Below, piece by piece: positions 14,842 through 38,506 of a stretch of DNA of 64,000 nucleotides. Both the position numbers and the translations under genes were made by a program. This DNA is from a virus. The notes beneath the pieces were generated by a model, which saw nothing but the letters and a program-made list of their open reading frames with translations, did no database searches and was not told where the DNA came from. The DNA is taken from the IMG/VR virus record IMGVR_UViG_3300030687_000017; one strand, 5' to 3'. Every line of letters starts with the position of its first letter. Positions within the stretch are counted from its first letter, which is position 1.

Positions 14842-14854
14842 TAAGGAGCAAGAA

Positions 14855-17135: not shown

Positions 17136-17138
17136 GCC

Positions 17139-19374: not shown

Positions 19375-19381
19375 GAGTCGC

Positions 19382-20140: not shown

Positions 20141-20539
20141 ATGGCCAACGTAGCCCCTACGATGCAGTACCTGCTGCTGGACGCAGGATACGACCCTATA
20201 TTTGACCCCAACGCCAATCTTACAGATACGTCTGCAGTAGCACAGGCCATCAAGACCCGTTTGAATCTGTTCCTTGGAGAGTGGTGGGAGAACCTGAATA
20301 TCGGGCTACCAGTGTTCCAAGCCATACTTGGGCAACTCGGAACACCGCAAGGGCTGGCCGCCATGGAGCTGGCCATACGCCAGAACATCGAGGGCGGACC
20401 ATATGTAACCGGCACCAACAACGTGCAGGTGACGTTCACGAATGGTCGACTAGGCATAACGGCCAACACCACCACGCAATTTGGTCCGGTTGCCATAAAT
20501 ACAGCACCAGCCTTGAGCGAATCAAGTCTAGACGCGTAA
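20141..20539 (+). CDS. putative baseplate wedge protein (gpW/gp25 or XkdS-like)
   Basis: 132 aa, position before the J-like gene; GEWWENLNIGLP loosely resembles the gp25 family motif. Confidence 0.4.
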   Translation: MANVAPTMQYLLLDAGYDPIFDPNANLTDTSAVAQAIKTRLNLFLGEWWENLNIGLPVFQAILGQLGTPQGLAAMELAIRQNIEGGPYVTGTNNVQVTFTNGRLGITANTTTQFGPVAINTAPALSESSLDA

Positions 20540-20555
20540 AGCAGCAAGGAGAATC

Positions 20556-21974
20556 ATGAGCACACCCGCCTATGCTCCACCGTCCGTAACGGCGAGCGGA
20601 CTCACCGTTCCCTCGTACCCGTCGATCCTTGCCGACAACCTGCAAGCGTTCTTGAACATATATGGCATCAATCAGTATGTTGGCCCAGACTCGGCCATCT
20701 ACCAGCTGTTGAGCATCATCTCCCTGAAGCAATCCGACACCATGCAGGCTGCACAGTTGGCGTACAACCAGTCATCGCCACAAACGGCCGTGGGAGCTGG
20801 CCTAGATAGGCAAGTGAAGATGAACGGGCTGGCGCGCGAGGCGTTCACATTCTCTACCGTACTGCTGAATCTAGTTGGCACAGGATTGTCGACTATTACG
20901 AACGGATTCGCACAGGATCAGAATGGTAACCTGTGGGCACTTCCTTCGACGGTTACATTTCCTCTCAGCGGGATAATCAGCGTAACGGCGACTTGCACCA
21001 CTCCAGGAGCTATTGCCGCCGAGCCGGGGCAGGTCAACGTCATCAACACGCCGACGTCTGGTTGGAGTACTGTCACCAATCCAACAGCAGCGACTGTGGG
21101 CGACGTAGTGGAGTCCGACTCCAGTCTGCGTGCGCGTCAAGCGGTGTCAGTGGCGCTGCCATCTCTAACTCCTGTGGCATCCACCATAGCTGCCATTTTA
21201 GCCGCACCCGGAGTCATTCGCGTTGCTCCGGGTTACCCCACGCCAGGTGGCCCAGGGTCTTCTATCGAGAATCCGACGGGAGCCGTGGACAGTTGGGGCA
21301 ACCCGCCCCACTCCATCTCAATGGTCGTGCAATGCACCAACGTACTAAGTGTGGCCACGGCGATCTACCAGAAAAAGACGATCGGTTGCTTCACCAACGG
21401 TACCACGACGAATCCAGTGATTGATCCAAATACTGGCGTGACCGAGGACATCAGCTTCTTTTTGCCAACGGTGTATCCCATATTCGTGCTCACCACGTTG
21501 ACTGGCTACGGTACTACGCCTAACAGTGCCGTGCTAAGTGCGGTGCAGGCTGCGTTGGTAACGTACCTAAACGAACTGGCCATTGGCGAGACTGTGTCCA
21601 TCGGAGCTATTTATTTCGAGATCATGAACGTGAACACCAACCTGATCGCGCCGAACTTCGGAACAGTATCTGTACAACTTGGTGTAACAACGGCTTCTAC
21701 CACGGGCACGTATGGCCTTGCCGCATCGTCTATGGTAGTGGCCTCAGCTACTGGCATCATAGCCGGTCAACTGGTCTCTGGTCCCGGCATCGCGCCTGGA
21801 ACATTGACTGGAACCCCGTCAGGCACTACCATACCGTTGACAATTCCAACTACAGCTGCCAGTACCGGAGGCGCGGTTTCGTTCTCCACGCTCGGCGTCG
21901 TCGACATCGTTATGCCAAACTTCTACTATGCCGCTGAGGGTATCGCCGGCAACATAGGAGTGGTCACGGTATGA
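20556..21974 (+). CDS. putative baseplate J-like protein
   Basis: 472 aa after the W-like gene; ATGA-coupled to the next gene; synteny. Confidence 0.45.
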   Translation: MSTPAYAPPSVTASGLTVPSYPSILADNLQAFLNIYGINQYVGPDSAIYQLLSIISLKQSDTMQAAQLAYNQSSPQTAVGAGLDRQVKMNGLAREAFTFSTVLLNLVGTGLSTITNGFAQDQNGNLWALPSTVTFPLSGIISVTATCTTPGAIAAEPGQVNVINTPTSGWSTVTNPTAATVGDVVESDSSLRARQAVSVALPSLTPVASTIAAILAAPGVIRVAPGYPTPGGPGSSIENPTGAVDSWGNPPHSISMVVQCTNVLSVATAIYQKKTIGCFTNGTTTNPVIDPNTGVTEDISFFLPTVYPIFVLTTLTGYGTTPNSAVLSAVQAALVTYLNELAIGETVSIGAIYFEIMNVNTNLIAPNFGTVSVQLGVTTASTTGTYGLAASSMVVASATGIIAGQLVSGPGIAPGTLTGTPSGTTIPLTIPTTAASTGGAVSFSTLGVVDIVMPNFYYAAEGIAGNIGVVTV

Positions 21975-22606
21975 GTAGCAACCCGTACTACGGCACGCAA
22001 GGTTATGGCACCGGAGGCTACGGCAATGAGCCGCTGGAAACACTGCCCATCGGATACTATATAGGGCTGCTGACGAGCCAGTACGCCAATTCCAAGAAGC
22101 TGAACGCGTTGCTCTACGTTCTGCTGAAGAAATTCGATGACGCCAGCCAGTGCCTGGTTCAAATGGACACGTCGCTCGACCTGGACAGCGCCATTGGCGC
22201 GCAACTGGACATGCTAGGAGCCACGGTCGGCGCATTCCGCACGGTGAACTTCCAGCCAAGCGGCGGAGTCAGCCCAATCCTGGACGACGCCACATTTCGC
22301 ATCTACATCAAGGCGAAGATCGCGACCAACCAGTGGGATGGTACGATTGTCAGCCTGTACCCAATCTGGAAGCAACTATTTCCTGGCGGTACAATCGTGG
22401 TCATCGACAATCAGAATATGACTGTGGATCTCACCCTTACAGGATCATTCACATCTATACTGCAGGATCTAATCGTGCACGGCTACATCGTACCGCGTCC
22501 CGAGGGCGTGCTCTATACGTACCTGTTCGGTGTCTTGCCCTTCTTCGGATTTGGCAGCTCGCCGGGATTCATATCTGGATTCGACACGGGACACTGGGCC
22601 GGCTAA
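21971..22606 (+). CDS. putative tail protein I-like / XkdU-like
   Basis: 211 aa following the J-like gene, preceding the tail fibre gene. Confidence 0.4.
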   Translation: MSSNPYYGTQGYGTGGYGNEPLETLPIGYYIGLLTSQYANSKKLNALLYVLLKKFDDASQCLVQMDTSLDLDSAIGAQLDMLGATVGAFRTVNFQPSGGVSPILDDATFRIYIKAKIATNQWDGTIVSLYPIWKQLFPGGTIVVIDNQNMTVDLTLTGSFTSILQDLIVHGYIVPRPEGVLYTYLFGVLPFFGFGSSPGFISGFDTGHWAG

Positions 22607-22624
22607 CCGCGGGCAAGGAGCTAC

Positions 22625-23665
22625 ATGGCAACCACCAATCTTCTGCAGTGGAATCCCACCGCAGCGAATCAAGAGAATGATGCGGCCTACTTGGCCGACT
22701 CACAGCGCGCGGGAGGAGCGACGGACCCCTCCCTGTTCCTTTCGCCGCTAGCGAACAAGGTGTTCTACCAGATGTCCACGTATCTGACTGCCCTGTTCAC
22801 GGCGTTCGCTGCCAAGGGCTTCACTACGTCGGACTCCAATCTGTCTACGCTTACCGCCCAGTGCGCCAACTTCCTGACGTCGGCGGACTTCAGGGCCAAT
22901 TTGCAGCTGGTGACGTACGCGCCAAATGTAACGTTCGACATGTCGCAGTCGCTGGGATTCGAAGTAAGACTCACCGGTAATGCGGATATAACGATAATCA
23001 ATCAGCAAGTTGGCGATTTACTGACTGTGGTACTATCTCAGGATGCCACGGGCGGGAGAACAGTCACGTGGTCCGGCGATGTAATTGGCGCAGGCGCTCT
23101 GGATACGTCGCCGAACGCGGAGTGCATATTGCTGTTCAAGGTCGACGTCAACAGCAATCTGGTTCCAGCCGCGCCCGTGCTATCCGATATTAACGGTATA
23201 GTAGGCACCGCCATAGGTGCCGCCGCGCCGTCGACCGGAGCGTTCACCACGCTGACGTTGGCCGCACCGGGTGCGGCTGGCCAGGTGCTGACGAACGTCG
23301 GTGGGTTCTTTGTGCCGCAATCGCCAGGTTTTTCACGCGTAACAAACTCAAACGGTAGTTACAGAATCTCTCCTGATGGAACCATAGAAGTGTGGGGTAG
23401 CATCAACGTCCCATCCACCGGCAACCAGTTTGCGAATGCTGCTATTGTCTTTCCACACGGTTTTACAGCAGTGCCAGGACTGCAGGTAACCGTACAAGGC
23501 TTGCCAAGTCCTAGCGCACACGCCAACGATATAGCTTCCGCCAGCGCGGTGTCAGTAACCACCACCGGAGCACAAGTATTCCTACAATGCTCCGTTCCTA
23601 CAGGTGGTGGTGGTGCAAACTTCGACCAGGCAGTCACACTGGCGTTCTACGCGATAGGAAACTAA
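22625..23665 (+). CDS. tail fibre protein
   Basis: 346 aa, Gly/Thr/Ala-rich with motif ...APSTGAFTTLTLAAPG... shared with the downstream giant proteins. Confidence 0.55.
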   Translation: MATTNLLQWNPTAANQENDAAYLADSQRAGGATDPSLFLSPLANKVFYQMSTYLTALFTAFAAKGFTTSDSNLSTLTAQCANFLTSADFRANLQLVTYAPNVTFDMSQSLGFEVRLTGNADITIINQQVGDLLTVVLSQDATGGRTVTWSGDVIGAGALDTSPNAECILLFKVDVNSNLVPAAPVLSDINGIVGTAIGAAAPSTGAFTTLTLAAPGAAGQVLTNVGGFFVPQSPGFSRVTNSNGSYRISPDGTIEVWGSINVPSTGNQFANAAIVFPHGFTAVPGLQVTVQGLPSPSAHANDIASASAVSVTTTGAQVFLQCSVPTGGGGANFDQAVTLAFYAIGN

Positions 23666-23668
23666 ATC

Positions 23669-24049
23669 ATGGCCAGTGAGACGACGACTCCGAATATAGG
23701 ACTGCAAATTCCGGCGTACAACCAGCCGAACTGGCAGGTTCCTACAAACTACAATTGGAACCTGCTGGATCTGATGCTTGGCGGCATCATACCGATGCCC
23801 GCCTTGGCCGACTTCATCATCACGAATCTGGGCGAACAGATTGCCGCCAACGCCGTCACGGAGACCCCCGTGGGGGTCATACCTGGAAACTCTTACACAT
23901 GCAGCCAGGTGCCTAACTTCATATTCGGATTCTACTGGAACGGCATCCTACAACGCGACGGTATTGATTTTACGCTCTCCGGAGCCGTTATCACGATGAC
24001 CAACAATGCAACTGCTACTGGAGACAATGTTTATGTCAAGTACATCTAA
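23669..24049 (+). CDS. small tail-fibre-associated protein (126 aa)
   Basis: Immediately after the fibre gene; function unknown, possibly a fibre assembly/adaptor protein. Confidence 0.4.
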   Translation: MASETTTPNIGLQIPAYNQPNWQVPTNYNWNLLDLMLGGIIPMPALADFIITNLGEQIAANAVTETPVGVIPGNSYTCSQVPNFIFGFYWNGILQRDGIDFTLSGAVITMTNNATATGDNVYVKYI

Positions 24050-27000
24050 GCGTGCGCTGCTTTGCTTTCTGCTCTTCTTTTGCGCCGCTTTCGCCGTCTC
24101 CGCGCAGACTGTGATAAACCCCGCGTCGCAAATTCGGTGGCCGGCAATCACAGGCACGGTGGATCCGGTGTCGCCATTGTGGACGTGCACCTCGGTCAAC
24201 TATGGGCAACCGTACACCAACACTGTAAGCAACACGTTATTCGTGTGCTCTTCCGCCGGATGGGTGAATACGGCTGGCGCTGGAACGGCCATTAGCGTCA
24301 ATGGCTCAGGCCCGCTGTCGTCACCCGTGAACTTCGCCAACTCGAGCGGCAATGGGGCGATCAACGTCACCAACCCTTCGGGAATCAATGTACTAGAGAC
24401 TCTGGCGAACCCCTTCTCTCTCATCAACGGGGTCAATTGCCCCCTGGGTAGTGCCGGATGCGCCATACCTCCCTTCTGCGCTGGCCCAACCTGCGCTAAT
24501 CTCGACCAGAATAACCCCGGATTCAGCGTCGGCGCAGCTCTTACTACGACTGCCTCAATCACCTCGACATCCCTTGTCATTCCAGTAGCGTCCACCGCAG
24601 GATGGCCGTCTACGGGATGTGGATGGACGAACGGAGCGGTGGAGTTTATATGCTGGGATTCGACAACCCCCACGTCGCTTGTATTGAATCAGCTAAGCCT
24701 TCGTCGCGGAGGTAACGCATACGCGGCTGTGTCTCATCCGATCAACACCAATATTATCGGAGCCGTCTACACACAGGCATCTAGTCCCACGACCCAGCAG
24801 AATTTTCAGGTGGCCTCGTCGGGTCAAGGTGGCTTGTTCAATGGAATCAATCCGGGCGTAACATTCCAGACGTCATTCGGCGGCACGGTTTACATGCCCG
24901 ACCTGCTCGCAGCAGAGGGGGGGATATACGCTCCGAATGGAATCGCGTTCCAGCCGGGTGGAGGAAACTTCGTTAATAGCAAGTCGAGCGCTACGTCGCA
25001 GTTCGTCACCTGCACGCCCGTAGGAACGCCCAGTGGGCTGTTCTGTAACGATGAGGGGAACTGGGTTGCGGCGGGTGGCGGATTCTCTTTGACGGCGGGA
25101 TTTCTCCCCTATGCTGTAACATCTTCTACGCTCGGTGACTCGCCCATCGACAACGGAATCACCAACCCAGGCGATGTGACCATATCCCTACCCCTGACCG
25201 TGGGTCCCCAAGACAATACTAATCAACCATCTCTCTATGTTTACGAAGAGAACTTTGGATCAGGCGGAGAACTTTCTCCGATGTTAGGAGTGCAAGGTGC
25301 CGCAGGAGTCCCGTTCAGGATAGAGGGAAGCTTGGCGACAAATAGCGCGTGGACGGATGTGGTAAATGGGATTTACATGGGTCCACTTGACGACGAATCC
25401 GAAAGCTCTTTCCCAACTGGTAGTATCTGTTCATCGCAGGCTCAAGTCGGCGGGGGGAATCCTTTTGCTTGCGAAACATTTCTGACCAATACGATCACAT
25501 TCAACACCGCAGCGGTTAGTGGTGCGCCCGGCGGCTCCGTTACTTTTCAGAACGCCGGATCTACAATCACCACGATTGTACCTACCGGCCTAGAACTCAA
25601 CTACCTAACCCCCAGCACCAGCCCGCTCTGCTATCCCGCAGGCTCTCCTGCGGTGGTAACTAACGTTGGCTGCACGGGCGGTGGACTCTCCGGCCTCACC
25701 ACGGGATTCTTTCCGATTGCAACGTCATCCACGACTGTGGGCAATTCCCTGCTCGACTACAACGTTACAAATCCAGGCTACTTCACGTTTGGAGCGCCGA
25801 TTCTCGCGGCTACGGGTAGCGAGGTAAACGGATCGCTAATCTGCACGGCGGCGAACGCGGTATGTCCAGCGACCGCAGGAATAACGTCCGTCATCGGCCC
25901 TGTCACGACCGTTACCGGCCCTTCAATCTCCATCGTTGGAGCCGGGGTAACGCAGACGGGAAGCACCTTCACCATCGGTGGGGGAGGCTCGGGCTGCGCT
26001 ATCGGAACTTGCGTGAACAACGCCGGAACCAGCAATCAGTTCGTCACGCAGTCAACTGGCACGTCCTACGGATTCACCGAAACCAACACGACGCCGAGCA
26101 ACAGCTTCCAATTCGATCAGACGGCGTTCGACAGCTTCAGCCCCGGTCACAATAGCGGTCAGAGTTTCAACGGCAACAGCGACTGGTCGGTGTTTTCGGT
26201 TCACCCGGGTTCATTCGAGTCCGCAACTGCTGGCATCAGTCAGTATGAGGGCTGTCTCTTCGCGCACACCTCCGAGGGCGACACCCACTGCAGCTACGAC
26301 TACATGTCCGCGGTCATAAACTTGGTGAACGCTAATGACGAGGGCGGCTGCTGGAAGTGCGTCCACATCAAGCAAGTGGGCGAACTATTCGGTCCCGTGG
26401 TATCTGCCACCTCGGGGGCCAATAGTACTACGCTGCTCGTGGTTACCGGGCCATCGCAGGCGGGCGACTGGAGTGAAATGCCCGCTAATTCCAACCAGTT
26501 TCCGGTTGGGCTGTTTATGGTCAATCAGACCACCGGGGTCTCGGGGCCATATACGGTAAGCGTCTACACGCCCAACGTGGACGGAGCCAATGAGTACACC
26601 CTAAGTTCGGGTACCGTAACGCCCTCGACGGCCTATGGAACCATCGCGAGCTGCACGAGTTCGCTCCAAGGAAACTTCGGCGTGTACGGCGCGCAGAACT
26701 GCACGATCAACGTCCTCGGTGGAACGAACGTAGCAGGCTTCGCGACGGGCTCAGATATCTTCCAAGTCGGAACGAAGGAGGAAGAGGACACTGTCACCAG
26801 CGTCGGGACACTCGGCGGCGGAACTCAGACCATCGTGCTTGAATCGCAGTATCCATTCCACACGGGAGACTTTATCGGGCAGGGCGGCCCGGGCGGGCAG
26901 GTTCTAGGCCCGAACGGTTCAACAGTGGCCACGGTCGATTTCATCGCTGGCGCCATCGACTCCACCCATGTAATCTTCGGGCATTGCGTAAAGGGAAGCT

Positions 27001-28550
27001 GCGCGGGCAACGGAAACGTCGTCAAGCCAAGCGCGAACCTCCTGCCCAACCTGTCGCTCTCACGCAACAGCGGCACGGGCGTGGTGACGGCCACGGCTCC
27101 GAACACCAACTTTCCCCCCTACTTCTGGCCCGCCGGTTCGACCATCGTCGTCAGCGGGGCGACACCGTCCGACCTGAACGGGACTTTCACCGTCGCTTCG
27201 AACACGCTAAACCTCTACAACATCGTCCTCACGTGGACACAGTCCGGAGCGACCGAGACGGGCACCGGAGCCACCATCACGTCGCCACTGCCCCAGATCA
27301 AGATGTACGGGGCTGCAATGATCTGCGGCACCAACAACGGCACGCAGGGCGACGCTAACCTTTGCACCAACCACGCGACTTGGAACGTGGCTGACTCGGT
27401 CGTTGGTTCCTCCTCGTCTGAGTACGAGGCCCAGGGTGCGACGATACGAATGGCGCAGTATACGGGGATCGACTTCAGCTTTCCCAGCGTCGGTATTACG
27501 CTGAATGACATCGGGCCGGTCGACGTCCTGTATGGGATGCGCGTGCAAAACAATCCGGGAAATGGGGTCGCCAACACTGCGTATGACATCGACGGCTCAT
27601 ACTCCCAATTCATCCATTCGTACTTCACGCCAGGCAACAACGGGTGCGTGCTGTGCGTTGTCGACGCGAATCCTAACGGCGGAACCCCGCTCCCGTACTT
27701 TATCTTCGACGAGCTGGGCTCCAACGGCGGCATCCTCTACACCTACTCGGCGAACAGCTACACGTTCGGAAACAACGGCCCCACTGGAACGGTGATAGCC
27801 AAGGAGGTGACTGCCACAAGCGCGGCGAGTTCCTTCGCTGCGGGAACGACCATCGGTGGCATCCTTCCATGCCTGCAGAATGGAACAGATTGTCCGAGCG
27901 TAAGTATTCCATGGGCGACCCCGGGTGCAATCGGATCCACGACGCCGAATAGCGGAGCGTTCACCACTTTGACGGCAACGAGCCTTGCGCTCGGTTCATC
28001 ACCTCCGACCTGTGGCGCTGGAGTATCTGGTTGTGGCGCCTTTGCGGAAGCAGGAACGCCCGTTACCGCAGCGGCTGGTGTGGACACTATCCGCGCAGAC
28101 TCCTCTCACTTGTTCAAGCTGACTCTAAACGGCGGGTCGGAATTCACGTCCCTCATGAACTTCTCCACCGTCAATTTGGCCAGCGGCTCGGCTGGAGGAG
28201 TCACCGGACTTCTACCGAACGCGAACATAGCGCACCCATACACCGCCATCTCCAATCCGATCACCTCCGCCGGAGGCGGCAGTGGAACGGGAACGATCAC
28301 CTGCCTGACGGCGACGTGCACGAATCTGCGAGGAACTTACTCTGTCGCGGGTGGCACGTTTGCGACTGGTACGTTCTTGACGTTGGTGTGGCCCACGACT
28401 ACTACGGCGTACGCTTGCACCGCTACGCAGAACGGCGGGGCTAGTCTAGGCATCGGGAACTCAGTCGCAACGGCAACAGGCGTCAGCTTCACCAACACCG
28501 CCACAATCCTGGGCACCACAGTAACCATTAACTACCAGTGCCAACCTTAA
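24033..28550 (+). CDS. giant (about 1505 aa) secreted beta-rich protein with cleavable Sec-type signal peptide; fibre/tailspike-related repeats
   Basis: Start MSSTSKRALLCFLLFFCAAFAVSA|QT (n-region, h-region, AxA site). Extremely Gly/Thr/Ser/Asn-rich; C-terminal ~130 aa homologous to the N-terminal region of the next protein and to the tail fibre motif. Confidence 0.6.
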   Translation: MSSTSKRALLCFLLFFCAAFAVSAQTVINPASQIRWPAITGTVDPVSPLWTCTSVNYGQPYTNTVSNTLFVCSSAGWVNTAGAGTAISVNGSGPLSSPVNFANSSGNGAINVTNPSGINVLETLANPFSLINGVNCPLGSAGCAIPPFCAGPTCANLDQNNPGFSVGAALTTTASITSTSLVIPVASTAGWPSTGCGWTNGAVEFICWDSTTPTSLVLNQLSLRRGGNAYAAVSHPINTNIIGAVYTQASSPTTQQNFQVASSGQGGLFNGINPGVTFQTSFGGTVYMPDLLAAEGGIYAPNGIAFQPGGGNFVNSKSSATSQFVTCTPVGTPSGLFCNDEGNWVAAGGGFSLTAGFLPYAVTSSTLGDSPIDNGITNPGDVTISLPLTVGPQDNTNQPSLYVYEENFGSGGELSPMLGVQGAAGVPFRIEGSLATNSAWTDVVNGIYMGPLDDESESSFPTGSICSSQAQVGGGNPFACETFLTNTITFNTAAVSGAPGGSVTFQNAGSTITTIVPTGLELNYLTPSTSPLCYPAGSPAVVTNVGCTGGGLSGLTTGFFPIATSSTTVGNSLLDYNVTNPGYFTFGAPILAATGSEVNGSLICTAANAVCPATAGITSVIGPVTTVTGPSISIVGAGVTQTGSTFTIGGGGSGCAIGTCVNNAGTSNQFVTQSTGTSYGFTETNTTPSNSFQFDQTAFDSFSPGHNSGQSFNGNSDWSVFSVHPGSFESATAGISQYEGCLFAHTSEGDTHCSYDYMSAVINLVNANDEGGCWKCVHIKQVGELFGPVVSATSGANSTTLLVVTGPSQAGDWSEMPANSNQFPVGLFMVNQTTGVSGPYTVSVYTPNVDGANEYTLSSGTVTPSTAYGTIASCTSSLQGNFGVYGAQNCTINVLGGTNVAGFATGSDIFQVGTKEEEDTVTSVGTLGGGTQTIVLESQYPFHTGDFIGQGGPGGQVLGPNGSTVATVDFIAGAIDSTHVIFGHCVKGSCAGNGNVVKPSANLLPNLSLSRNSGTGVVTATAPNTNFPPYFWPAGSTIVVSGATPSDLNGTFTVASNTLNLYNIVLTWTQSGATETGTGATITSPLPQIKMYGAAMICGTNNGTQGDANLCTNHATWNVADSVVGSSSSEYEAQGATIRMAQYTGIDFSFPSVGITLNDIGPVDVLYGMRVQNNPGNGVANTAYDIDGSYSQFIHSYFTPGNNGCVLCVVDANPNGGTPLPYFIFDELGSNGGILYTYSANSYTFGNNGPTGTVIAKEVTATSAASSFAAGTTIGGILPCLQNGTDCPSVSIPWATPGAIGSTTPNSGAFTTLTATSLALGSSPPTCGAGVSGCGAFAEAGTPVTAAAGVDTIRADSSHLFKLTLNGGSEFTSLMNFSTVNLASGSAGGVTGLLPNANIAHPYTAISNPITSAGGGSGTGTITCLTATCTNLRGTYSVAGGTFATGTFLTLVWPTTTTAYACTATQNGGASLGIGNSVATATGVSFTNTATILGTTVTINYQCQP

Positions 28551-28551
28551 G

Positions 28552-31374
28552 GTGAAACCGATGACTATGAGAAAGCTTCTCTTCTTGCTGGGGCTGCTCT
28601 TTGCGGCAGCTCCAGCCGTCGTTTCTGCGCAGACCAACCTGCAGCCTGTGCAGTATCAAAACTACACGCCTACCGGCGCGTGCACGCAGCCAAATTGGCT
28701 CGTCGTTACGGTCAATGTTGGAACGTTTCAGTGCATCAACGGCGCGTGGGTTCAACTCGGTAGCGGCACGGTAAACTGGGCATCACCCGGCGCGATCGGC
28801 ACCGGCACGCCTAACTCTGGCATATTCACGTCCCTAGCAGCCACGGGTGGCCTAGCTCTGGGAACCACACCACCTACATCCTGTTCGCACACCACTGGAT
28901 GCGCTGCGTTTGGTGAATCCGTCACGTCAGGAGCACCCACCGCGGGCGTCGACTACATTCGAGCAGACGCCACCACGCACAGCTTTCTTCAATCACTGAA
29001 TGGCGGCGCGGAGACGCCTTTAAGCATTGGATTGACTAGCTTTACCGTGGCCAATCTTTCGCCGCTGTTTACGGCGGCCTTGGGGGCTAATCCGACTACG
29101 GCACCAGCCCTGGCATTTACGCTCAGCAATGCGTCCGGGAGCACACTGTTCGGCAACTGCACAGGCTCTACAGCGGCACCGAGTTACTGTGCGCTTACGG
29201 TGGCCATGCTGCCAACAGGAATACCGAATAGCAACCTAGCGACTCCCTTTGTGCAACTCTCTGGCGATGCAACCAGCACCTCTACAGGCGGAGCCACTAC
29301 AGTAAAGGGAATCAACGGCACGCTGCTGTCTGGGTTGGGGACTGGGTTGCTTTGGAATACAACTTCTACCGGAGTGCCGTCCATTGCAACAGCCGCGCAG
29401 GTGCTTGGATCGTTCAGCACTAATGTCGTCTATGCATCCAAGATCATCGGCGTGACTCCCGGAGTTGCAGTAGTGCCGGGAAGTTCAGCAACCGGAACCG
29501 TCGACTCGGCAGGGCCAATCAATTCCACCCTCGCTTCGGGGAACATCCACTTGATGATGGATACTGGGGTTGCTCTGAGCACATCTTTAGTCGTTGGATC
29601 GAATACATGGATTGAATGTACGTCCCCTCAGTACGGATTCATCATGCAGGCGGCGGCGAACGTTCCGGTTATCGTCAATGCCCATCAGAACGCCCCGACT
29701 ACTACGAGCGGAACGGGTGGTTATTTAGTCTCGAACCAGACCGATTCCAATATCCGAATCACGGGTTGCACGCTAAATGCGAACTCGCTTCAAGCGGTGA
29801 CAGGCAGTGGCAACGGACAAGGAACGGCGCACACCACAAACGGGTCGAATCTTTGGATCTTCGGCGTCCAACTGCTCAGTGTAAATGGCGTCGTCATGGA
29901 CTATGACGAAATCTATGACTCAGGCACGTACAGCGCGATGTTCTCGAACGATTCGAACGTTTGGCTGAACCACAATTATCTACATCAGATCGTTCCGATG
30001 GTTCTCAAGAAGAACACGGATGGCTTTCACTTCACCGGCCCTGACTCTAATATCTACGAGAGCGAAAATGTCATCGTGTCTGGAGACGACGCCTTAGCTT
30101 GGAATCCCGACGACGGGAACGAGACCTGCTCGACGTGCTATCCAACTGCCATTCACTTTGGATGGATTCAGCATGTGTTCGCAGATAACAACTTGATCGA
30201 CGGGGCCGCTGCCGGGCCTCTTGTCTACAGCAGCACCGAACTCGCCGATGATATTCATATCAACAATACGAGCGGGACAGTGCTTGGCAACGACATAGAG
30301 ATTGCCAAGTTCACGACGGGGAACGGAAATGTTGGATCGGTGCATATCCACCAACACACATCCCAGTCCAACGGCTCTCAAAATCCATATTCTCAGCCTT
30401 ATCTCGGCTACTATATCAATGCGAATTACAAACTAATCGACATCGATGGGCCGACCCTGGTGAATCCAGCGGCTGCCGTTTCTGGCTGGAATTGGATCAC
30501 GCACAACGTAGTCACTCCGGGCGTTCTTTCTATTCACAACGCGACCATCAACACGACGGCAACCACAGTTACGGCGAACCTGATTCAAATCACCGGAGGC
30601 GCAGCTCCGCAGATTCAACTTGGTGGAATCAACTGGGAGGACATCAACACTGGAGCCGCAGCGGTGCTTGGTGGGAGCGTAGTACCGACAAGCCTCACGG
30701 CTTCGAATTGCAGCCTACCGGGTGCTGGACGACTTCTTGCCGGAGGCTTCGCCCCGACCTACCAGAACGGCGATTGCTTCACCAACCTATACCCCGGCGG
30801 TGCGACAGTCTACGTAAACACGATATTCAACGAAGCTGGATCAGGTACGTTGCTTGCAGGAACTGTTCCTGCTACCTGTACGGCGGGCAGCGGCTGCACA
30901 TGGGCTTTGACAGGTGGACAAGACTTCGCTTATGCATCCGGCGGTGGCGTGTCCATCTCGGTACCCAACACCACCGGCAACGAAGACCTAATCAACACCG
31001 GCCAGACAAACGAAACGATTCGTTTCAATCTAGCCACTTGCACTGGGACTTCCACTTCCGCTGTGTGCCAGATTGGAGTGCGCTGGACTAACTCCTCCAA
31101 CTTCACCGCCATCAATATATTGGCAACGACCGGGGCTTACCAAATCTACGATGTGGTGAGCGGAACCGCGAACCTAAAATACACCAGCGCCACAGGTACT
31201 GGAACTGGCAACTACACCATTACACTTTCCAGCACAAGCATCACAGTTGCAGGCCCACAGGCCACAAGCCCTGCCGAGACCATTGCAAACACCGGGACTG
31301 ACATGGGCATCACGATGCAGGGATCGACAGCTACCGGCATGAAGCTGTCATCCATGTCGGCAAAGAGCTTCTAA
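28552..31374 (+). CDS. large (940 aa) secreted beta-rich protein with Sec-type signal peptide
   Basis: MKPMTMRKLLFLLGLLFAAAPAVVSA|QT; the segment PGAIGTGTPNSGIFTSLAATGGLALGTTPPTSCSHTTGCAAFGE..GVDYIRAD aligns with protein 1's C-terminal PGAIGSTTPNSGAFTTLTATSLALGSSPPTCGAGVSGCGAFAE..GVDTIRAD. Confidence 0.6.
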   Translation: MKPMTMRKLLFLLGLLFAAAPAVVSAQTNLQPVQYQNYTPTGACTQPNWLVVTVNVGTFQCINGAWVQLGSGTVNWASPGAIGTGTPNSGIFTSLAATGGLALGTTPPTSCSHTTGCAAFGESVTSGAPTAGVDYIRADATTHSFLQSLNGGAETPLSIGLTSFTVANLSPLFTAALGANPTTAPALAFTLSNASGSTLFGNCTGSTAAPSYCALTVAMLPTGIPNSNLATPFVQLSGDATSTSTGGATTVKGINGTLLSGLGTGLLWNTTSTGVPSIATAAQVLGSFSTNVVYASKIIGVTPGVAVVPGSSATGTVDSAGPINSTLASGNIHLMMDTGVALSTSLVVGSNTWIECTSPQYGFIMQAAANVPVIVNAHQNAPTTTSGTGGYLVSNQTDSNIRITGCTLNANSLQAVTGSGNGQGTAHTTNGSNLWIFGVQLLSVNGVVMDYDEIYDSGTYSAMFSNDSNVWLNHNYLHQIVPMVLKKNTDGFHFTGPDSNIYESENVIVSGDDALAWNPDDGNETCSTCYPTAIHFGWIQHVFADNNLIDGAAAGPLVYSSTELADDIHINNTSGTVLGNDIEIAKFTTGNGNVGSVHIHQHTSQSNGSQNPYSQPYLGYYINANYKLIDIDGPTLVNPAAAVSGWNWITHNVVTPGVLSIHNATINTTATTVTANLIQITGGAAPQIQLGGINWEDINTGAAAVLGGSVVPTSLTASNCSLPGAGRLLAGGFAPTYQNGDCFTNLYPGGATVYVNTIFNEAGSGTLLAGTVPATCTAGSGCTWALTGGQDFAYASGGGVSISVPNTTGNEDLINTGQTNETIRFNLATCTGTSTSAVCQIGVRWTNSSNFTAINILATTGAYQIYDVVSGTANLKYTSATGTGTGNYTITLSSTSITVAGPQATSPAETIANTGTDMGITMQGSTATGMKLSSMSAKSF

Positions 31375-33536
31375 TGAGACTCCTACTCCTATCTACGCTG
31401 CTTCTGATGTGCTCGGCCCCCGCGTGGGGCACGACTTGGTTCGTCCGCCCTGGCGGCGGAACGAGGTACTCGACCTCGGTGACCGCAGGCCAGTGCAACG
31501 GGCAGGCGGACGCCGATTATCCTGGCACGGGCACAGATCAGCCATGCGCCTACAACGACATCCGATACCTATGGAGCGACAACAGCGGGAGCAACCCGGC
31601 ATGGGTCATCGCTGGCGGGGATACGGTAGTCATCCGTGGATGTCACGCGCTCGCGGGGCAAACAAACCCATCGAATCCCAACTGCCGGCTGGGCTACGAC
31701 AACGCGTTGAACGGCAATCCGCCCAACCAATGGTGCGGTTCCGGCAACGGTAACACAGGGTGCTTCAACCCCCCAATCCCAGCGGGAACCTCGGGAGCGC
31801 ACACGAAGATCCTCGGAGGCTGCGCGTACGGGACCTACACATGCACGCCAATCAACAACAACTACCCCTATGGCGCTACCAATGAGACACAGTTGTTCGG
31901 GGGCTTCGGGCTTGTCTTCACGTTCAACCTGCAATCGACGCAGCATGTGGACATCCAGGGCATCGAGTTGACGACGCACAACGGCGTCTGCACCTACCAG
32001 ACGGGTTCCCCGGCCTATCCGCGCGGCTGCTCCAACAGCCCTCCCTACGACGACTACGCGGTGACGGGCTTCATCTTCAACAATCAGTCTGCGGACATCA
32101 ACCTTCAGGATGTCTATGTTCACGGATTTACGGCCTCGGGACTGTTCGGACCTATTGGCGGAACGATCAATTTAACTAGGGTTTTCTCTGGCTTCAACGC
32201 ATTTGCTGGATGGAATTTCGACGATGCCAACCTCTTTAATAACAACAGCACACAATATTCCATAGACAGTAGCAATAACGTAACTATAATTGCTCCCGCA
32301 GGCACGCCAAACCCTACAAATGGCTTGAATCCAGGAATGATCGTAACCCTCTCCGCCTTTGGAACCTCAACGTTCCTAAACGGTCAAGTGATCTCTATAA
32401 CTTCTGTTACTTCAACACAGTTCACTGGTCCCCTCCAAACACCTCATGCCGCTGTGGGTCTCACCACAGAGAGCGGTCATTGGATCAACAATTCTACCCC
32501 TGACTATCCAGGGTCAAGCATCAACGCACAGTACGTGACGCAAATCTTCAATGGCTGCTACGAGCAGTATCCCATCACCAATACCTACCCGGCGCAGGTC
32601 TGCTACGACACCAACTCAGCAGGCTTTGGAGATAGTTGGAGCGGGCAGAACACGCCCTTGGTCTCGTTCACCTGCAACTATTGCGTGGACGACTACAACA
32701 CGAAGGACGGCTTCATTGGCCCACACGTCGAGACCGCGAACATCACGATCACCAACTCCGTTGCAATTGGCAACATGGGATCGAACTGGAAGTGGGGCGG
32801 GGACGACTCGGTGGTCAACACGACCCTATTCGAGAACAACCTCACGGTCAATAACTGTTCAAGGATGAGCGCGTCCATCACCGGAGCTCCGTCAACCTAC
32901 AACCAGTACCTGACGGGCTTCTGCCGCGCTGGCGGCAACGGCATGGCCTCGGTGATCCCAACGGGCTCGACCTGGAACCTGATCAACAACACATTCATCA
33001 CGGCTCAGCAGATAGCCATATTCGTGGCCTGCAACGGCGCGGACTCCACCTGCCCATCGACCATCAACTCCACCAACAACGTGTTCCTTGGCTACGTCGA
33101 TCCGAACAACCCCTACGGTGGAACCAACGTCCCCACGGTCTACGACTTCACCAACGGGCCGGGAACGGGGCCATCGGGCATCACGCTGAACGTCTCGCAC
33201 AATGATGAGTTTGGCATGCGGAGTGGAACATGTCCATCGACTACGAATGGAACGATTTGCGTCAGTCCGCTTCTGTTGAATCAGCCCTCGCAGACGTGGG
33301 TGAGCGAAGCGGCTCTGGACGTGTTCAACCCCCTTGTAGCAAGAAACTCCTTCTACCCAACATCTGGCAGCCCCCTGCTGGCGTCAGACACGACAGGCGG
33401 CCCGTCAACCGACTACTACATGGTGACCCGGCCAGTACCGGGAGCCATCGGAGCGGTTGAGTACCTTGCACCACCCGCCTTCATAGGCTCCCAGTTTTCC
33501 AGCGGCTCGGCATTCAGCAAAGGAACTTCATTCTAA
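31374..33536 (+). CDS. large (720 aa) secreted protein, probable right-handed beta-helix (pectate-lyase-fold) carbohydrate-active protein
   Basis: MRLLLLSTLLLMCSAPAWG|TTWFVRPGGGTRY (signal peptide then a W[FY]VxPxGxD/G-type beta-helix N-cap); Asn/Gly/Thr-rich repeats, many Cys. Confidence 0.55.
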   Translation: MRLLLLSTLLLMCSAPAWGTTWFVRPGGGTRYSTSVTAGQCNGQADADYPGTGTDQPCAYNDIRYLWSDNSGSNPAWVIAGGDTVVIRGCHALAGQTNPSNPNCRLGYDNALNGNPPNQWCGSGNGNTGCFNPPIPAGTSGAHTKILGGCAYGTYTCTPINNNYPYGATNETQLFGGFGLVFTFNLQSTQHVDIQGIELTTHNGVCTYQTGSPAYPRGCSNSPPYDDYAVTGFIFNNQSADINLQDVYVHGFTASGLFGPIGGTINLTRVFSGFNAFAGWNFDDANLFNNNSTQYSIDSSNNVTIIAPAGTPNPTNGLNPGMIVTLSAFGTSTFLNGQVISITSVTSTQFTGPLQTPHAAVGLTTESGHWINNSTPDYPGSSINAQYVTQIFNGCYEQYPITNTYPAQVCYDTNSAGFGDSWSGQNTPLVSFTCNYCVDDYNTKDGFIGPHVETANITITNSVAIGNMGSNWKWGGDDSVVNTTLFENNLTVNNCSRMSASITGAPSTYNQYLTGFCRAGGNGMASVIPTGSTWNLINNTFITAQQIAIFVACNGADSTCPSTINSTNNVFLGYVDPNNPYGGTNVPTVYDFTNGPGTGPSGITLNVSHNDEFGMRSGTCPSTTNGTICVSPLLLNQPSQTWVSEAALDVFNPLVARNSFYPTSGSPLLASDTTGGPSTDYYMVTRPVPGAIGAVEYLAPPAFIGSQFSSGSAFSKGTSF

Positions 33537-34057
33537 TGGCCAACTTCGACGTCAGCTACGCATGGATCATGACTTCGGAAGACCCGACATATCATTACGC
33601 CATGGTGCCCGATCCGCCACCTGGCGCGCACGCCATCTCCGGCATCAACAGTCACTCCTTCCCGTCTGAATTCGCCGCCATAAACGCCGTACCACAAGCA
33701 GATCGCGGACCAGCCGTGCGAAACTTCTATCAGACCAAGTTCTGGAACCAGTGGTACGCGGCGCTGGCTACCGACGACCTAGCCAAGCGAGTATTCGATG
33801 AGGCGGTCAACGGCGGACCTGGTACGGCGGTATTCATGCTGCAGCGCGCCGTCAACACGCTGCTGCCGGAGGATGCTCAGATAAATGTGGATGGCGGTTG
33901 GGGCTCGAATACGGTAGGAGCGGCTAACTACTGCGACCAACCAACCCTGGTAGCAAACTTCATCACGGCGCGCATCACGCACTACAAGGCGATAGCGTCC
34001 GGCAACCCAACTCTCGCATCTGACTTGCCTGAGTGGATAGCGAGGGCAGAACGATGA
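33536..34057 (+). CDS. endolysin, GH108-family lysozyme domain
   Basis: Motifs FDEAVNGGPGTAVFMLQRAVN...VDGGWGSNTVGAAN match the GH108 pattern (fDxxvNxG...LQxalg..DGxxGxxT). Confidence 0.6.
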   Translation: MANFDVSYAWIMTSEDPTYHYAMVPDPPPGAHAISGINSHSFPSEFAAINAVPQADRGPAVRNFYQTKFWNQWYAALATDDLAKRVFDEAVNGGPGTAVFMLQRAVNTLLPEDAQINVDGGWGSNTVGAANYCDQPTLVANFITARITHYKAIASGNPTLASDLPEWIARAER

Positions 34058-34296
34058 ACTCACACACGTACGCATTGACCGACCCGGTAGCGCTGGTCGC
34101 CAAGCTGCGATCACTGGGCGGTCCAGCCGTGGATCCCACGCAGCCCACCGGAACGGCCACCGCCGACGGCGTGACGCTGGCATGGTCTGTCACTGCGAAG
34201 CAGGTCACCATCATCATAATCAAGCTGCCGTTCTTCGTCTCAAATGACGAAGTCTGGAGCCACGTAGAGAAAGTACTAGGAGACCCAATCGCATGA
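34054..34296 (+). CDS. hypothetical small protein in the lysis cassette (about 80 aa)
   Basis: ATG 34054 after GGGCAGAA; overlaps the endolysin 3' end by 4 nt. Confidence 0.35.
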   Translation: MNSHTYALTDPVALVAKLRSLGGPAVDPTQPTGTATADGVTLAWSVTAKQVTIIIIKLPFFVSNDEVWSHVEKVLGDPIA

Positions 34297-34574
34297 ACCT
34301 GACCATCAACGGCAAAGCAATCAAGAAGCAAACCCTGATCATCCTGGGCTTGATCGCCACGGGTGCCGCCGCGAGCCAAGTTACGGCCGTCAACCATTTT
34401 CTCAGCTACCATCCACGCCTAGCGCCGCTCGGTCAGTTTCTATTGGCCGCGATCGCAGTTCTGCACACTCCATACGTCGAACAGATCCTGTTTCACCAAC
34501 AGGAGCAACAACCGGACGGAACGGAAGTAGACACCAAGGTGTCGGTTACCCCTGGCGCACCACCAACCAAGTAA
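34293..34574 (+). CDS. holin-like membrane protein
   Basis: 93 aa with two hydrophobic helices (LIILGLIATGAAA..., FLLAAIAVLH) and a charged C-terminus; adjacent to the endolysin. Confidence 0.45.
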   Translation: MNLTINGKAIKKQTLIILGLIATGAAASQVTAVNHFLSYHPRLAPLGQFLLAAIAVLHTPYVEQILFHQQEQQPDGTEVDTKVSVTPGAPPTK

Positions 34575-34589: not shown

Positions 34590-35129
34590 ATGAAAAATCT
34601 TATCGCAGGAATTACAAAGGGCTCGGTAGTCGCCGCCCTTTGCCTAACACTGTGCGCCGCGCCAATGGTGGGCTGCACCGGCTCGCAAGTGGTCAATGAG
34701 GTCAACGTGGTACTGACCGAGGCAGTGAACATTCTGGCGGTAGCGCAGCCTAATGCTCCTTGGGCACCGCAGTTGAAGGCTGCAGTGGCCGCACTGCAGA
34801 CCGCAGAGGCGACGTGGCAGGCTGGCGGTACGGTGGTCATCGTAGAGGACGCGCTCAATACCATCGTAGCTATTACGGCAGCCATCCCGCTTACGGCCGC
34901 ATACTCTCCGCTGATCGATGTGCTAGTTGCCGGTATTGAGGCAATCCTGGCTGCACTGCCGCCGAGCACTGTGGCGCCTACACCAGTAGTGGCAGCCTCC
35001 CATAACCCGCACATCGGGCGCGTGCAAATCAAGCACCACATGCTGCATAGTCGCGTCAGTGACTTCAAGGCAGCCTGGAACGCCGCCGTGAAGGCCGACT
35101 CGCGTTTGGCCGGTGCTGAACTAAAGTAA
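34590..35129 (+). CDS. lipoprotein (possible spanin component)
   Basis: N-terminal signal with lipobox-like ...AAPMVGC (and LTLC); Ala-rich helical remainder; lysis-cassette context suggests a Gram-negative host. Confidence 0.45.
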   Translation: MKNLIAGITKGSVVAALCLTLCAAPMVGCTGSQVVNEVNVVLTEAVNILAVAQPNAPWAPQLKAAVAALQTAEATWQAGGTVVIVEDALNTIVAITAAIPLTAAYSPLIDVLVAGIEAILAALPPSTVAPTPVVAASHNPHIGRVQIKHHMLHSRVSDFKAAWNAAVKADSRLAGAELK

Positions 35130-35204
35130 CCTTCGGCAAGCAGGGAGTCGGCCTTCGGGTCGGCTCCCTTTCTTCTTTGCACGCAACATTGGAAGGACTG
35201 AAAC

Positions 35205-36519: not shown

Positions 36520-36578
36520 GACCCGGCTGGCTGGTACTCAGAACATCGAGTGCCAGCCAGCCGGGTCTTTTGTCGTTT
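36520..36578. terminator. bidirectional rho-independent terminator at the convergence point of the two modules
   Basis: 15-bp GC-rich stem GACCCGGCTGGCTGG/CCAGCCAGCCGGGTC with 18-nt loop, followed by TTTTGTCGTTT on + and preceded by an A/T-poor but stable context on -. Confidence 0.7.
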
Positions 36579-36861
36579 AAGACTTCTCATCCGGATAGTA
36601 CACTTCGATCAGCTTCTGTAGGAAGTGCTGTGCTTTCTTCAGGTCTTCCAGGCCGTTCTTACCGAGGAAGCGTAATGTGTACTTGGCCACCTGTCCAACC
36701 AAGTATGGCATCTTGGCATACAGATCCCAGTGCTGAATAATTTTATGACAGTGAGGACACACCGCCGACGCCTCTTGATAGTGACTACCTCCTACCTGCG
36801 TATCGTTAGCCTTGCTACTCGAAGACGTTGAATTCCGGACCTGCTTCACTACGGGTTTCAC
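36577..36861 (-). CDS. DUF3310-family phage protein
   Basis: Hallmark VGGSHYQ motif and KYTLRFLGK...DLKKAQHFL. Confidence 0.55.
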   Translation of the reverse strand: MKPVVKQVRNSTSSSSKANDTQVGGSHYQEASAVCPHCHKIIQHWDLYAKMPYLVGQVAKYTLRFLGKNGLEDLKKAQHFLQKLIEVYYPDEKS

Positions 36862-37423
36862 GATAGATCTCCTTTATAGCTTCGTACATGTTAGAGGCGC
36901 GCAGCGCGATGTCCAAGGGTACTTCCGTATTTACCGTGAGTGTTTCGATGTATGAACAGAATCGCTTCCAGATCAGCATGACGTTCTTGTTACCTAAGGC
37001 AAGCTCACGGCAGCAATACAGCAGACCATCAAAGCAGTCAGCCAGCTTAAGGATGAGCAACTCCTCCGGATCCAACCATTGCTCATAATCCAGGTCGTAC
37101 TTACGCAGCGTCTTCTGCTCCCAGTCATGGACTAGGTCAGACAGGCCCATCATGCGCTTGGCTGGAGCGCTGATGTCTGACGCTGCTTGCTCGGCCAGAT
37201 CATGCGTTAGCGCTGCCATAAGCAACATGGCGCTGGCTTGCGTACGACCCTCGGCATCTTTGCCGGCCAGTAAACTGCACCAAAGAGCAACGCCGAACGA
37301 GTGTGACGCATCGGTGTCTGTGCGTAAGCCTGGACGTGCGTGGTAGCGAATTACACTACCGCCCTCGTAAATGAATTGCAGGAGTTCTTTCACTTCCGCC
37401 TCCGTTCTTTCCACTCGTAGCAC
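36815..37423 (-). CDS. HD-domain phosphohydrolase (YfbR-like 5'-deoxynucleotidase type)
   Basis: RYHARPG...TDTDASHSFGVALW (H..D) and LTHDLAE (HD) motifs. Confidence 0.7.
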   Translation of the reverse strand: MLRVERTEAEVKELLQFIYEGGSVIRYHARPGLRTDTDASHSFGVALWCSLLAGKDAEGRTQASAMLLMAALTHDLAEQAASDISAPAKRMMGLSDLVHDWEQKTLRKYDLDYEQWLDPEELLILKLADCFDGLLYCCRELALGNKNVMLIWKRFCSYIETLTVNTEVPLDIALRASNMYEAIKEIYRETRSEAGPEFNVFE

Positions 37424-38481: not shown

Positions 38482-38506
38482 CTTCACTTCCTTTCGCTGC
38501 TATGGG

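Follow-up and report, generated by a model that had tools for sequence, protein, structure and literature searches.

The 64,000-nucleotide stretch of viral DNA analysed here (hereafter the window; IMG/VR virus record IMGVR_UViG_3300030687_000017) encodes three very large tandem proteins, which we call P1, P2 and P3, that very probably leave the cytoplasm via the Sec pathway and fold with disulfide bonds. We tentatively favour the view that they are depolymerases released free when the infected cell lyses. Their open reading frames (ORFs) lie on the + strand, as do the features given below unless stated otherwise, and are co-directional and translationally coupled: P1 (24033-28550; 1505 amino acids, aa) is a predicted exported, multi-domain, fibre- or spike-like protein with 19 cysteine pairs, P2 (28561-31374; 937 aa) a predicted exported tailspike- or GH28-like beta-helix protein with 8 pairs, and P3 (31374-33536; 720 aa) a predicted exported beta-helix enzyme with 10 pairs. 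A first-pass annotation of the window had picked out three very large tandem ORFs with signal peptides between the tail fibre gene (22625-23665) and the lysis cassette, and had remarked on their richness in Gly, Thr, Ser and Asn. All of this stands: gene calls made independently on identical metagenome contigs agree on 1505, 937 and 720 aa, an endolysin with GH108 and PG_binding_3 domains (33536-34057) follows P3, and the proteins contain 11.7-13.5% Gly, 11.4-13.8% Thr, 8.9-10.5% Ser and 7.5-10.3% Asn.

The case for export begins at the N-termini. With an arrow at the predicted cleavage site, these read MSSTSKRALLCFLLFFCAAFAVSA↓QT for P1 (signal peptide aa 1-24, ending FAVSA; 24033-24104), MTMRKLLFLLGLLFAAAPAVVSA↓QT for P2 (aa 1-23, ending AVVSA; 28561-28629) and MRLLLLSTLLLMCSAPAWG↓TTWFVRPGGG for P3 (aa 1-19, ending APAWG; 31374-31430). 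We called signals with a hydrophobicity and charge heuristic and, as the test for Sec and signal peptidase I (SPase I) processing, looked for a basic n-region, a hydrophobic stretch (h-region) 7-15 residues long, and small, uncharged amino acids at positions -3 and -1. All three proteins have a K/R-containing n-region (K6/R7 in P1, R4/K5 in P2 and R2 in P3), an h-region of 10-15 residues (ALLCFLLFFCAAFAV, LLFLLGLLFAAA and LLLLSTLLLM, respectively) and small residues at -3 and -1 (VSA↓Q, VSA↓Q and AWG↓T). Among the 11 ORFs of at least 400 aa in the window the heuristic flagged only P1, P2 and P3, and in the + strand late module it flagged besides these just two small ORFs of the lysis region; with alternative starts allowed, its false positives amounted to approximately 10% of small ORFs and one large control ORF. 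A twin-arginine translocation (Tat) signal was ruled out by the lack of an RR motif, a lipoprotein by the lack of a lipobox, and a signal-arrest-release (SAR) anchor by strongly hydrophobic h-regions followed by AxA sites, and inspection of the C-termini revealed no PEP-CTERM, type IX secretion system or outer-membrane-protein beta-signal.

These signals are also kept in homologues. By a stricter form of the heuristic they are present in 86/108 of the P1 matches, 31/37 members of the P2 family and 66 of the 120 top P3 matches (75/120 by a looser form), and many of the homologues scored without a signal are fragments or have miscalled starts. One apparently signal-less P2 homologue, P0144, is a frameshift artefact whose signal and N-terminal module lie in an upstream 55-aa ORF. 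The signals persist even where the mature N-terminus differs, and in the P3 family the conserved TW(F/Y)VRxDGGTRYS domain begins exactly at the predicted cleavage site. Their n-, h- and c-regions and this retention across three unrelated families bear out the earlier description of textbook Sec signals, two of them with a VSA↓QT context, and make the signals look functional.

A second line of evidence, which like the host relatives of P3 described below had not been noted before, comes from the mature proteins. P1, P2 and P3 contain 38, 16 and 20 cysteines, all even numbers, arranged as adjacent pairs with a median gap of 7-11 residues within pairs versus 36-86 between them (permutation p <1e-4 for P1, 0.003 for P2 and 0.016 for P3). 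Cysteine content is 1.7-2.9% in P1-P3 compared with 0-0.9% in the tail-tube and baseplate proteins (12726-18316 and 20141-24049), the exception in the tail module being the ORF at 19343-20137 (1.9%). The pairs are invariant or nearly so in an alignment of 40 P3-family members. In 47 related viral loci, surveyed with our own ORF caller and signal heuristic, the median cysteine content of 75 distinct signal-bearing large ORFs was 2.2%, against 0.69% in 78 without a signal (Mann-Whitney p = 4.5e-13), and 68 of the 75 had an even number of cysteines in the mature part (binomial p = 1e-13). Judging from the pairs, P1-P3 probably form 37 disulfides, which would need the periplasm. Because this signature stands apart from the N-terminus, it supports export independently of the signal peptides.

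The three genes also belong to a defined transcription unit. P1 most likely starts at ATG 24033, which has GGAG 9 nt upstream and gives 1505 aa; the other candidate of this ORF (24006/24033-28550), ATG 24006, lacks a Shine-Dalgarno (SD) sequence. The likeliest start of the P2 ORF (28552-31374) is ATG 28561, with AAGGTG 6 nt upstream (937 aa), GTG 28552 giving 940 aa, and P3 runs from ATG 31374 to a stop ending at 33536 (720 aa). TAATG overlaps join P2 to P3 and P3 to the signal-less endolysin, and promoter- and terminator-like sites within 20-37 kb are not commoner than in shuffled sequence; the gene overlaps, together with the lack of an internal promoter or terminator signal above chance, indicate that P1-P3 are expressed late, together with the tail and lysis genes. 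Dozens of metagenome contigs, measuring up to ~102 kb, encode exactly the same P1-P3 proteins; this rules out an assembly artefact and identifies the element as a phage genome of ~100 kb that stands free. Upstream of P1, the contractile-tail module comprises a sheath (12726), a lytic tape-measure-like protein (15558), a hub (18298), a baseplate-J wedge (20556), a baseplate protein (21971) and, adjoining the baseplate genes, a tail fibre of 346 aa (22625-23665) in which the heuristic detected no signal peptide. The fibre matched Phage_phiTE_241_C, carries the short motif APSTGAFTTLT and has a C-terminus that is weakly Gp53-like_C/H-lectin-like.

P3 links the cassette to the exopolysaccharide (EPS) of the host. 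It gave 533 homologue matches, many of them chromosomal Acidobacteriaceae proteins, and shows 42-69% full-length identity to secreted homologues encoded on chromosomes (e.g. P0039 and P0055). Full-length homology, the post-signal (T)W(F/Y)(V/I)RxDGGTRYS start and the cysteine pairs place P3 in this family of secreted Terriglobia beta-helix proteins, in which the pairs C41/58, C90/104, C121/130, C206/219 and C434/437 are invariant, as are D420, K444, D445, H451 and others, none of them matched to a catalytic mechanism. Host members consist of a signal and the domain (~600 aa), or of a lipoprotein signal, He_PIG Ig repeats and the domain. In all three of the cellular loci examined (L004, L068 and L069) the P3-like gene lies inside a Wzx/Wzy exopolysaccharide locus, where a He_PIG-repeat paralogue (862-1274 aa), a gene of 278-284 aa without a Pfam match and the P3-like gene (592-598 aa) follow one another and adjoin genes for Wzy, Wzx, GT2/GT4 enzymes, UDP-glucose dehydrogenase and a PEP-CTERM protein. 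Together the three genes look like a so far uncharacterised Acidobacteria module for EPS processing.

The phage gene, for its part, sits in a tail/lysis operon and not in a Wzx/Wzy locus, and its product carries an insertion of ~80 aa (aa 287-371; 32232-32486), modelled as a small beta domain, that is present in the four phage-borne full-length homologues and in none of 36 cellular-type ones; a possible role for it is carbohydrate binding or docking. As in the host enzymes, the signal peptide runs directly into the beta-helix cap with no N-terminal adaptor between. By its sequence, then, P3 is a phage-adapted offshoot of the host's own EPS-locus enzyme and a recent exchange partner of it.

Structure prediction, which the first-pass annotation had called for in proposing a beta-helix typical of polysaccharide lyases or depolymerases, yielded for both P2 and P3 a right-handed beta-helix of the polysaccharide lyase, hydrolase or tailspike type. 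In P2, aa 287-937 (29419-31371) were modelled confidently as such a helix followed by a C-terminal CBM66/ConA-like, lectin-like beta-sandwich, and matched the tailspikes CBA120 TSP2, Det7, HK620 and Sf6 as well as GH28 enzymes. KNTDG...GDD, a consensus of the P2 family, is reminiscent of the Asp triad of GH28. Searches of Pfam and PHROGs returned no match for any of the three proteins, and for P2 this held at E <=0.1 with PF00295 (GH28) included, a domain found in one distant P2 homologue (P0157); P2 thus resembles GH28 in modelled fold and in motif, and the Pfam search did not assign it to the family. Profile searches of PDB sequences with the P2 and P3 family alignments found no match, nor did tblastn of P2 and of its N-terminal module against cultured phages, and a scan of IMG/VR with the P2 alignment recovered one locus. 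The N-terminal region of P2 (aa 24-286; 28630-29418) is fibre-like and rich in Gly, Thr, Ser and Ala; it comprises a small cysteine module and a module common with P1, and as a monomer it was predicted with a local distance difference test score (pLDDT) below 50. Several P2 homologues consist of a signal peptide, a Gly linker and the beta-helix. P2 and P3 probably act on polysaccharide. Virus-encoded carbohydrate-active enzymes (CAZymes) are frequently classed as auxiliary metabolic genes that contribute to carbon turnover. P1-P3 are candidate enzymes, stable and disulfide-bonded, for breaking down the EPS of Acidobacteria.

P1 is less readily classified. Its signal is followed by a module of ~60 aa (24105-24290) with the pattern INPxTQIxWP..C..NYGQPYTxT..YxC..GW and one cysteine pair, which an exhaustive HMMER search found in over 40 phage proteins, 71-1172 aa long, always immediately after the signal peptide. 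The pattern NYGQPYT[ND]T occurs, among 185,579 genomes, in one contig of a Terriglobales metagenome-assembled genome (MAG) and in one probably chance match in Marivirga, and among viral contigs in one; the module therefore appears to be essentially phage-borne. Many of its carriers, of 70-350 aa, are little more than signal, module and Gly-rich tail; in one (P0200) the module is duplicated in tandem, and in another (P0223) collagen-like G-X-Y repeats follow it. Further along P1 the HMMER search delimited a second domain (aa 57-386), and a large conserved domain (aa ~600-1290; 25830-27902) is common to ~50 mostly signal-bearing proteins, one P1-domain homologue having a YadA-stalk match. The C-terminal module (aa 1289-1427; 27897-28313) is homologous to aa 68-205 of P2 (~100-140 aa; E ~1e-15) and holds the 'SGAFTTLT' motif, as TPNSGAFTTLTAT in P1 and TPNSGIFTSLAAT in P2. 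An xPxSGAFTTLTxT motif had earlier been ascribed to all three proteins and to the tail fibre; this holds for P1 and P2, is marginal for the fibre (a 45-aa stretch, E = 0.045), and fails for P3, which lacks the motif.

Other searches with P1 were negative. Its homologues gave no Pfam or PHROGs match for the P1 domains, a profile search of PDB sequences found no relative of the large domain, and phmmer against the PDB found none for the C-terminal module or for the tail fibre. An hhalign comparison of the P1 and P2 families aligned the signal peptides alone, and none of P1-P3 showed homology to known virion-anchor domains in Pfam, PHROGs or phmmer searches against the PDB. On its modules P1 is a fibre- or spike-like relative.

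The arrangement had been thought uncommon, a view that the survey of related phages does not uphold. In the 47 IMG/VR loci with a P3-like gene, this gene is usually the last of a same-strand tandem of up to six signal-bearing ORFs, and in a few it stands alone; signal-less hub, wedge, baseplate and fibre genes commonly lie 5' of the tandem, and a recognisable endolysin lies 3' in at least 8 loci. In another phage (L007), signal-bearing proteins of 1314, 1166 and 701 aa are followed by a holin, a lysozyme and a spanin. Signals are present in 87 of the 179 ORFs of at least 400 aa, that is, in about half of the large ORFs in these Acidobacteria phage loci, compared with 5% of prophage CAZymes in a global prophage catalogue (PMC13507307).

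Terriglobia phages that have the cassette include viruses of myo-, sipho- and podovirus morphology, and among them are the only cultured phages of Acidobacteria, in which it comes after the tail genes. In the podovirus Tunturi_1, the signal-bearing, Cys-rich products gp12, gp13, gp14 ('tail spike'), gp16 and gp17 are encoded in tandem with the lysis genes directly next, and in the siphovirus Tunturi_4, the signal-bearing, Cys-rich gp113 ('tail protein') and gp114 (P3-like) are followed by RNase E as the next annotated gene. The P3 homologues Tunturi_4 gp114 and Tunturi_1 gp17 share 27-30% identity with P3, and both phages differ in morphology from the contractile-tail phage described here. The labels 'tail spike' and 'virion structural protein' in the Tunturi genomes were transferred on the basis of structure with Phold and not from proteomics, and signal peptides are not mentioned in that paper (PMC11924767). 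Homologue taxonomy and the Tunturi matches point to Terriglobia as the host of the present phage, for which a megablast of the P1-P3 region against cultured phages gave no match.

Signal-bearing, fibre-like proteins are also found in soil phages of Burkholderia. Bcep1 gp51 (L070 3741-5306; also Bcep43 gp48 and Bcep781 gp49) and gp48 of the syntenic myovirus BgManors32 (651 aa; L066 12182-14137) each begin with a textbook signal, continue with the classic fibre motif 'GQ(V/I)LTAxQLN...GGTLTGPL' and have paired cysteines, and the two have a C-terminal tip in common; the GenBank note to Bcep1 gp51 reads 'possible tail fiber; possible signal peptide domain'. As in the window, a separate signal-less fibre adjoins the baseplate genes of Bcep1 and BgManors32. 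These virulent soil myoviruses differ from the present phage in host phylum and in having single genes, of 520-650 aa, without a beta-helix assignment, and BLAST of P1-P3 against Bcep1 gp51 and BgManors32 gp48 was not significant. By eye, and again without BLAST significance, P1 (27900-28547) and both Burkholderia proteins end alike, in 'Y-x-C-T-A', ~35-40 aa, '(Y/F)-x-C-x-x-(N/P)' and the stop, so that each C-terminus has a terminal cysteine pair.

The cytoplasm is assumed to be where tailed phages fold and assemble their receptor-binding and depolymerase proteins, and a conserved cassette built for export needs explaining. Virion tailspikes such as CBA120 TSP2, Det7 gp208, those of HK620 and Sf6, and the Klebsiella K1, K2 and K64 depolymerases have the same right-handed parallel beta-helix; their genes, like those of P1-P3, form the distal part of the tail module, with several in a row, and P2 has a lectin-like C-terminal domain. 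Known tailspikes, however, are cytoplasmically folded proteins with few cysteines and no signal peptide that bind the virion through an N-terminal domain, whereas P1-P3 have predicted cleavable Sec signals and 8-19 cysteine pairs each, and P3 is without an N-terminal adaptor. In fold and context P3 also resembles bacterial enzymes: Pantoea WceF, a Tat-exported, tailspike-like protein proposed to trim polymer during periplasmic transfer or in the biofilm (PMC7949094), the Vibrio polysaccharide (VPS) lyase RbmB of Vibrio cholerae (PDB 9ozd), and the periplasmic Vi-antigen depolymerase (PMC6003464). P3 has no detectable sequence homology to any of the three, and differs from WceF in its Sec-type signal, its place in a late lytic phage operon and the ~80-aa insertion of the phage copies.

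A further precedent concerns the route out of the cell. Shiga toxin is a secreted cargo encoded beside lysis genes and released through phage lysis. Its subunits and exported endolysins are, as are P1-P3, products of late genes with signal peptides that adjoin the lysis cassette, and they mature in the periplasm or the cell wall and leave via lysis; Sec-exported or SAR endolysins such as fOg44 Lys44 are known examples of exported late phage products (PMC6116005). Those are modest-sized toxins or muralytic enzymes, while here the proteins are three, very large and directed at polysaccharide, and the endolysin has no signal. In the open-access literature we found no description of a conserved tandem cassette of Sec-signal, Cys-paired, tailspike-like proteins in lytic tailed phages; the searches brought up just the GenBank note on Bcep1 gp51 and the 5% figure for prophage CAZymes. 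Taken singly, fold and gene position match tailspike depolymerases, and the export logic matches bacterial EPS enzymes of the WceF/RbmB type and exported late phage products.

The three fates considered at first pass were a soluble depolymerase, remodelling of the host surface, and a periplasm-routed part of the virion. Our data favour the first, although only tentatively, and the following sequence of events would account for them. P1-P3 would be made late, from one transcription unit with the tail and lysis genes, and unlike virion proteins they would enter the Sec translocon, lose their signal peptides and fold in the oxidising periplasm with many short-range disulfides. P2 and P3 would be right-handed beta-helix enzymes that cleave polysaccharide, P3 having been copied from an enzyme of a Terriglobia Wzx/Wzy EPS locus. 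Late in infection the proteins would build up in the periplasm, where they may already cut nascent EPS, until holin, endolysin and spanin burst the cell and free them as disulfide-stabilised depolymerases. The freed enzymes would then clear the EPS or capsule matrix of the burst cell and of cells nearby, allowing progeny, which carry a signal-less fibre of their own, to escape and reach new receptors. We infer export, cleavage, disulfide formation, substrate and the free rather than virion-joined state. We favour this account because P3 and several P2 homologues lack an N-terminal adaptor, because P3 mirrors secreted enzymes of the host, because a complete signal-less fibre is present beside the baseplate genes, and because late exported products let out by lysis have precedent. 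If it is correct, a dedicated set of secreted free depolymerases is a routine product of phages whose soil hosts are heavily encapsulated.

Several observations weigh against release of free enzymes, and most of them support instead an alternative that we regard as possible but doubtful, namely that P1-P3, or at least P1 and P2, are virion fibres or spikes that mature in the periplasm. Here the virions would be built in the cytoplasm with no fibres or an incomplete set, and P1-P3 would be exported for the sake of their disulfides. They would be added to the virions only once holin lesions or lysis had brought the two compartments together, docking through the post-signal N-terminal module onto the signal-less fibre, the 126-aa protein encoded just before P1 or the baseplate. 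P1-P3 occupy the position of the distal fibres or tailspikes of syntenic phages, as in the Klebsiella myovirus Mulock, where a signal-less 1275-aa fibre stands in their place. P1 and P2 have fibre-type modules in common (the match to the tail fibre motif being marginal, E = 0.045), and the N-terminal module of P1, conserved in more than 40 proteins ahead of highly variable C-termini, resembles a virion anchor. One homologue has collagen-like repeats and another the YadA-stalk match. In some contigs, L071 and L072 among them, the signal-bearing genes are embedded in structural modules, away from the lysis genes. The investment is large: the cassette measures 9.5 kb here and ~12 kb of the 63-kb Tunturi_1 genome, and signal-bearing genes take up 10-20% of a genome, more typical of receptor-binding, multi-tailspike arsenals than of accessory enzymes. 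Also counting against free enzymes, the main domain of P1 found no assignable function in Pfam or PDB profile searches, and the export, cleavage and activity of P1-P3 are predictions from sequence and models.

Maturation of virion parts in the periplasm draws further support from the N-terminal 260 aa of P2, which like trimeric shafts were not modelled as a monomer, from Bcep1 gp51 and BgManors32 gp48, in both of which a signal peptide precedes the classic fibre motif at the N-terminus and which have a C-terminal tip in common, and from the phage-specific insertion of P3, which could be a docking domain. Structural tailspikes are expected to lack an export signal, and all of P1-P3 have one of Sec type; to our knowledge no tailed phage assembles Sec-exported virion parts. 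Joining would moreover be confined to the seconds around lysis or to the time afterwards, no N-terminal extension follows the signal in P3 and several P2 homologues, a complete signal-less fibre with a lectin-like tip is present, and the post-signal N-termini differ widely among phages that share the cassette, such as L007. Should this alternative nevertheless be true, part of the virion matures in another compartment; it is thus conceivable, if doubtful, that Terriglobia phages, and perhaps Bcep781-like phages of Burkholderia, build virions in two compartments with Sec-routed, periplasm-matured distal fibres or tailspikes. The Tunturi phages on Tunturiibacter, and Bcep1, Bcep781 and BgManors32 on Burkholderia, are cultured systems for this question.

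We consider it improbable that the enzymes serve chiefly to remodel the envelope or destroy receptors while the cell is still intact, acting from the periplasm on its nascent EPS, capsule or O-antigen so as to stop polymer export, strip receptors against superinfection and the loss of progeny on debris, and, as a further step in lysis, clear a virion-trapping capsule. In a diderm, a Sec signal alone takes a protein no further than the periplasm, which fits such a role, as do late co-expression with the lysis cassette, frequent adjacency to it, and the derivation of P3 from host EPS-locus enzymes, whose analogue WceF is a proposed polymer trimmer (PMC7949094). However, with expression this late exclusion could hardly make a difference, a periplasmic trimming enzyme would have no need of fibre-like shafts or lectin-like C-terminal domains, and in several phages the cassette lies away from the lysis genes. 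This explanation also overlaps with the release of free depolymerases and is hard to separate from it.

It is very improbable that P1-P3 are moron or lysogenic-conversion cargo, that is, host-derived secreted proteins that the phage carries passively and that are expressed from a prophage to the host's benefit. P3 does have close cellular homologues, and secreted cargo beside lysis genes is a known pattern, as in Shiga toxin. Against this, start/stop overlaps bind P1-P3 to the tail and lysis genes with no promoter or terminator of their own above chance within 22-34 kb, and the P1 and P2 families are essentially phage-only, the longest of their contigs being no more than 130 kb and the N-terminal module pattern limited to the Terriglobales MAG contig and the probably chance Marivirga match among the 185,579 genomes. 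The phage has its own replication and DNA-hypermodification genes, and all its contigs are free-standing, at ~100 kb. Equally far-fetched is the notion that the N-terminal hydrophobic stretches are chance, miscalled starts or uncleaved anchors of ordinary cytoplasmically assembled tailspikes, for although the heuristic gave ~10% false positives on small ORFs with alternative starts, the signals are kept across three unrelated families, the starts are SD-supported, h-regions of 10-15 residues are too short for a transmembrane anchor, and the pairing and parity of the cysteines are independent of the N-terminus.

Some features of the flanking regions complete the description of the locus. The 126-aa signal-less ORF (23669-24049), whose 3' end overlaps the start of P1 by 17 nt, is homologous to Tunturi_4 gp112 ('tail assembly protein'; L012 6631-7071; 29% identity over 86 aa, E = 6e-4) and could encode a chaperone, an adaptor or a short fibre. 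Both genes lie immediately 5' of signal-bearing genes, and their products have the N-terminal motif 'TPN(I/Y)GL..P......W....N.N...(L/I)D' in common. Beyond the endolysin, whose ATG overlaps the P3 stop, sequence features mark two lysis accessory ORFs, a 93-aa transmembrane protein (34293-34574) and a 179-aa spanin-like protein with a lipobox (34590-35129). The first strong terminator-like hairpin 3' of the tail, P1-P3 and lysis unit is at 35142-35169 and a second at 36520-36567.

Lys and Arg each make up 0.6-1.8% of P1-P3 and Asp plus Glu ~4.6-5.4%, so the proteins should be acidic, perhaps because they are adapted to acidic soil or peat. On the - strand (36815-41885), Pfam matches on identical contigs reveal a thymidine-hypermodification gene set comprising a YfbR-like HD phosphohydrolase, a thymidylate-synthase-like enzyme, a 5-hydroxymethyldeoxyuridine (5-hmdU) DNA kinase (HMUDK_hel), a nucleoside triphosphate (NTP) transferase and a TAGT/aGPT-type enzyme, and the DNA of this phage is probably hypermodified. 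Two ORFs that break up the head/structural module (7519-8046 and 9743-10624) have N-termini that by eye resemble homing endonucleases of the HNH and GIY-YIG types, respectively.

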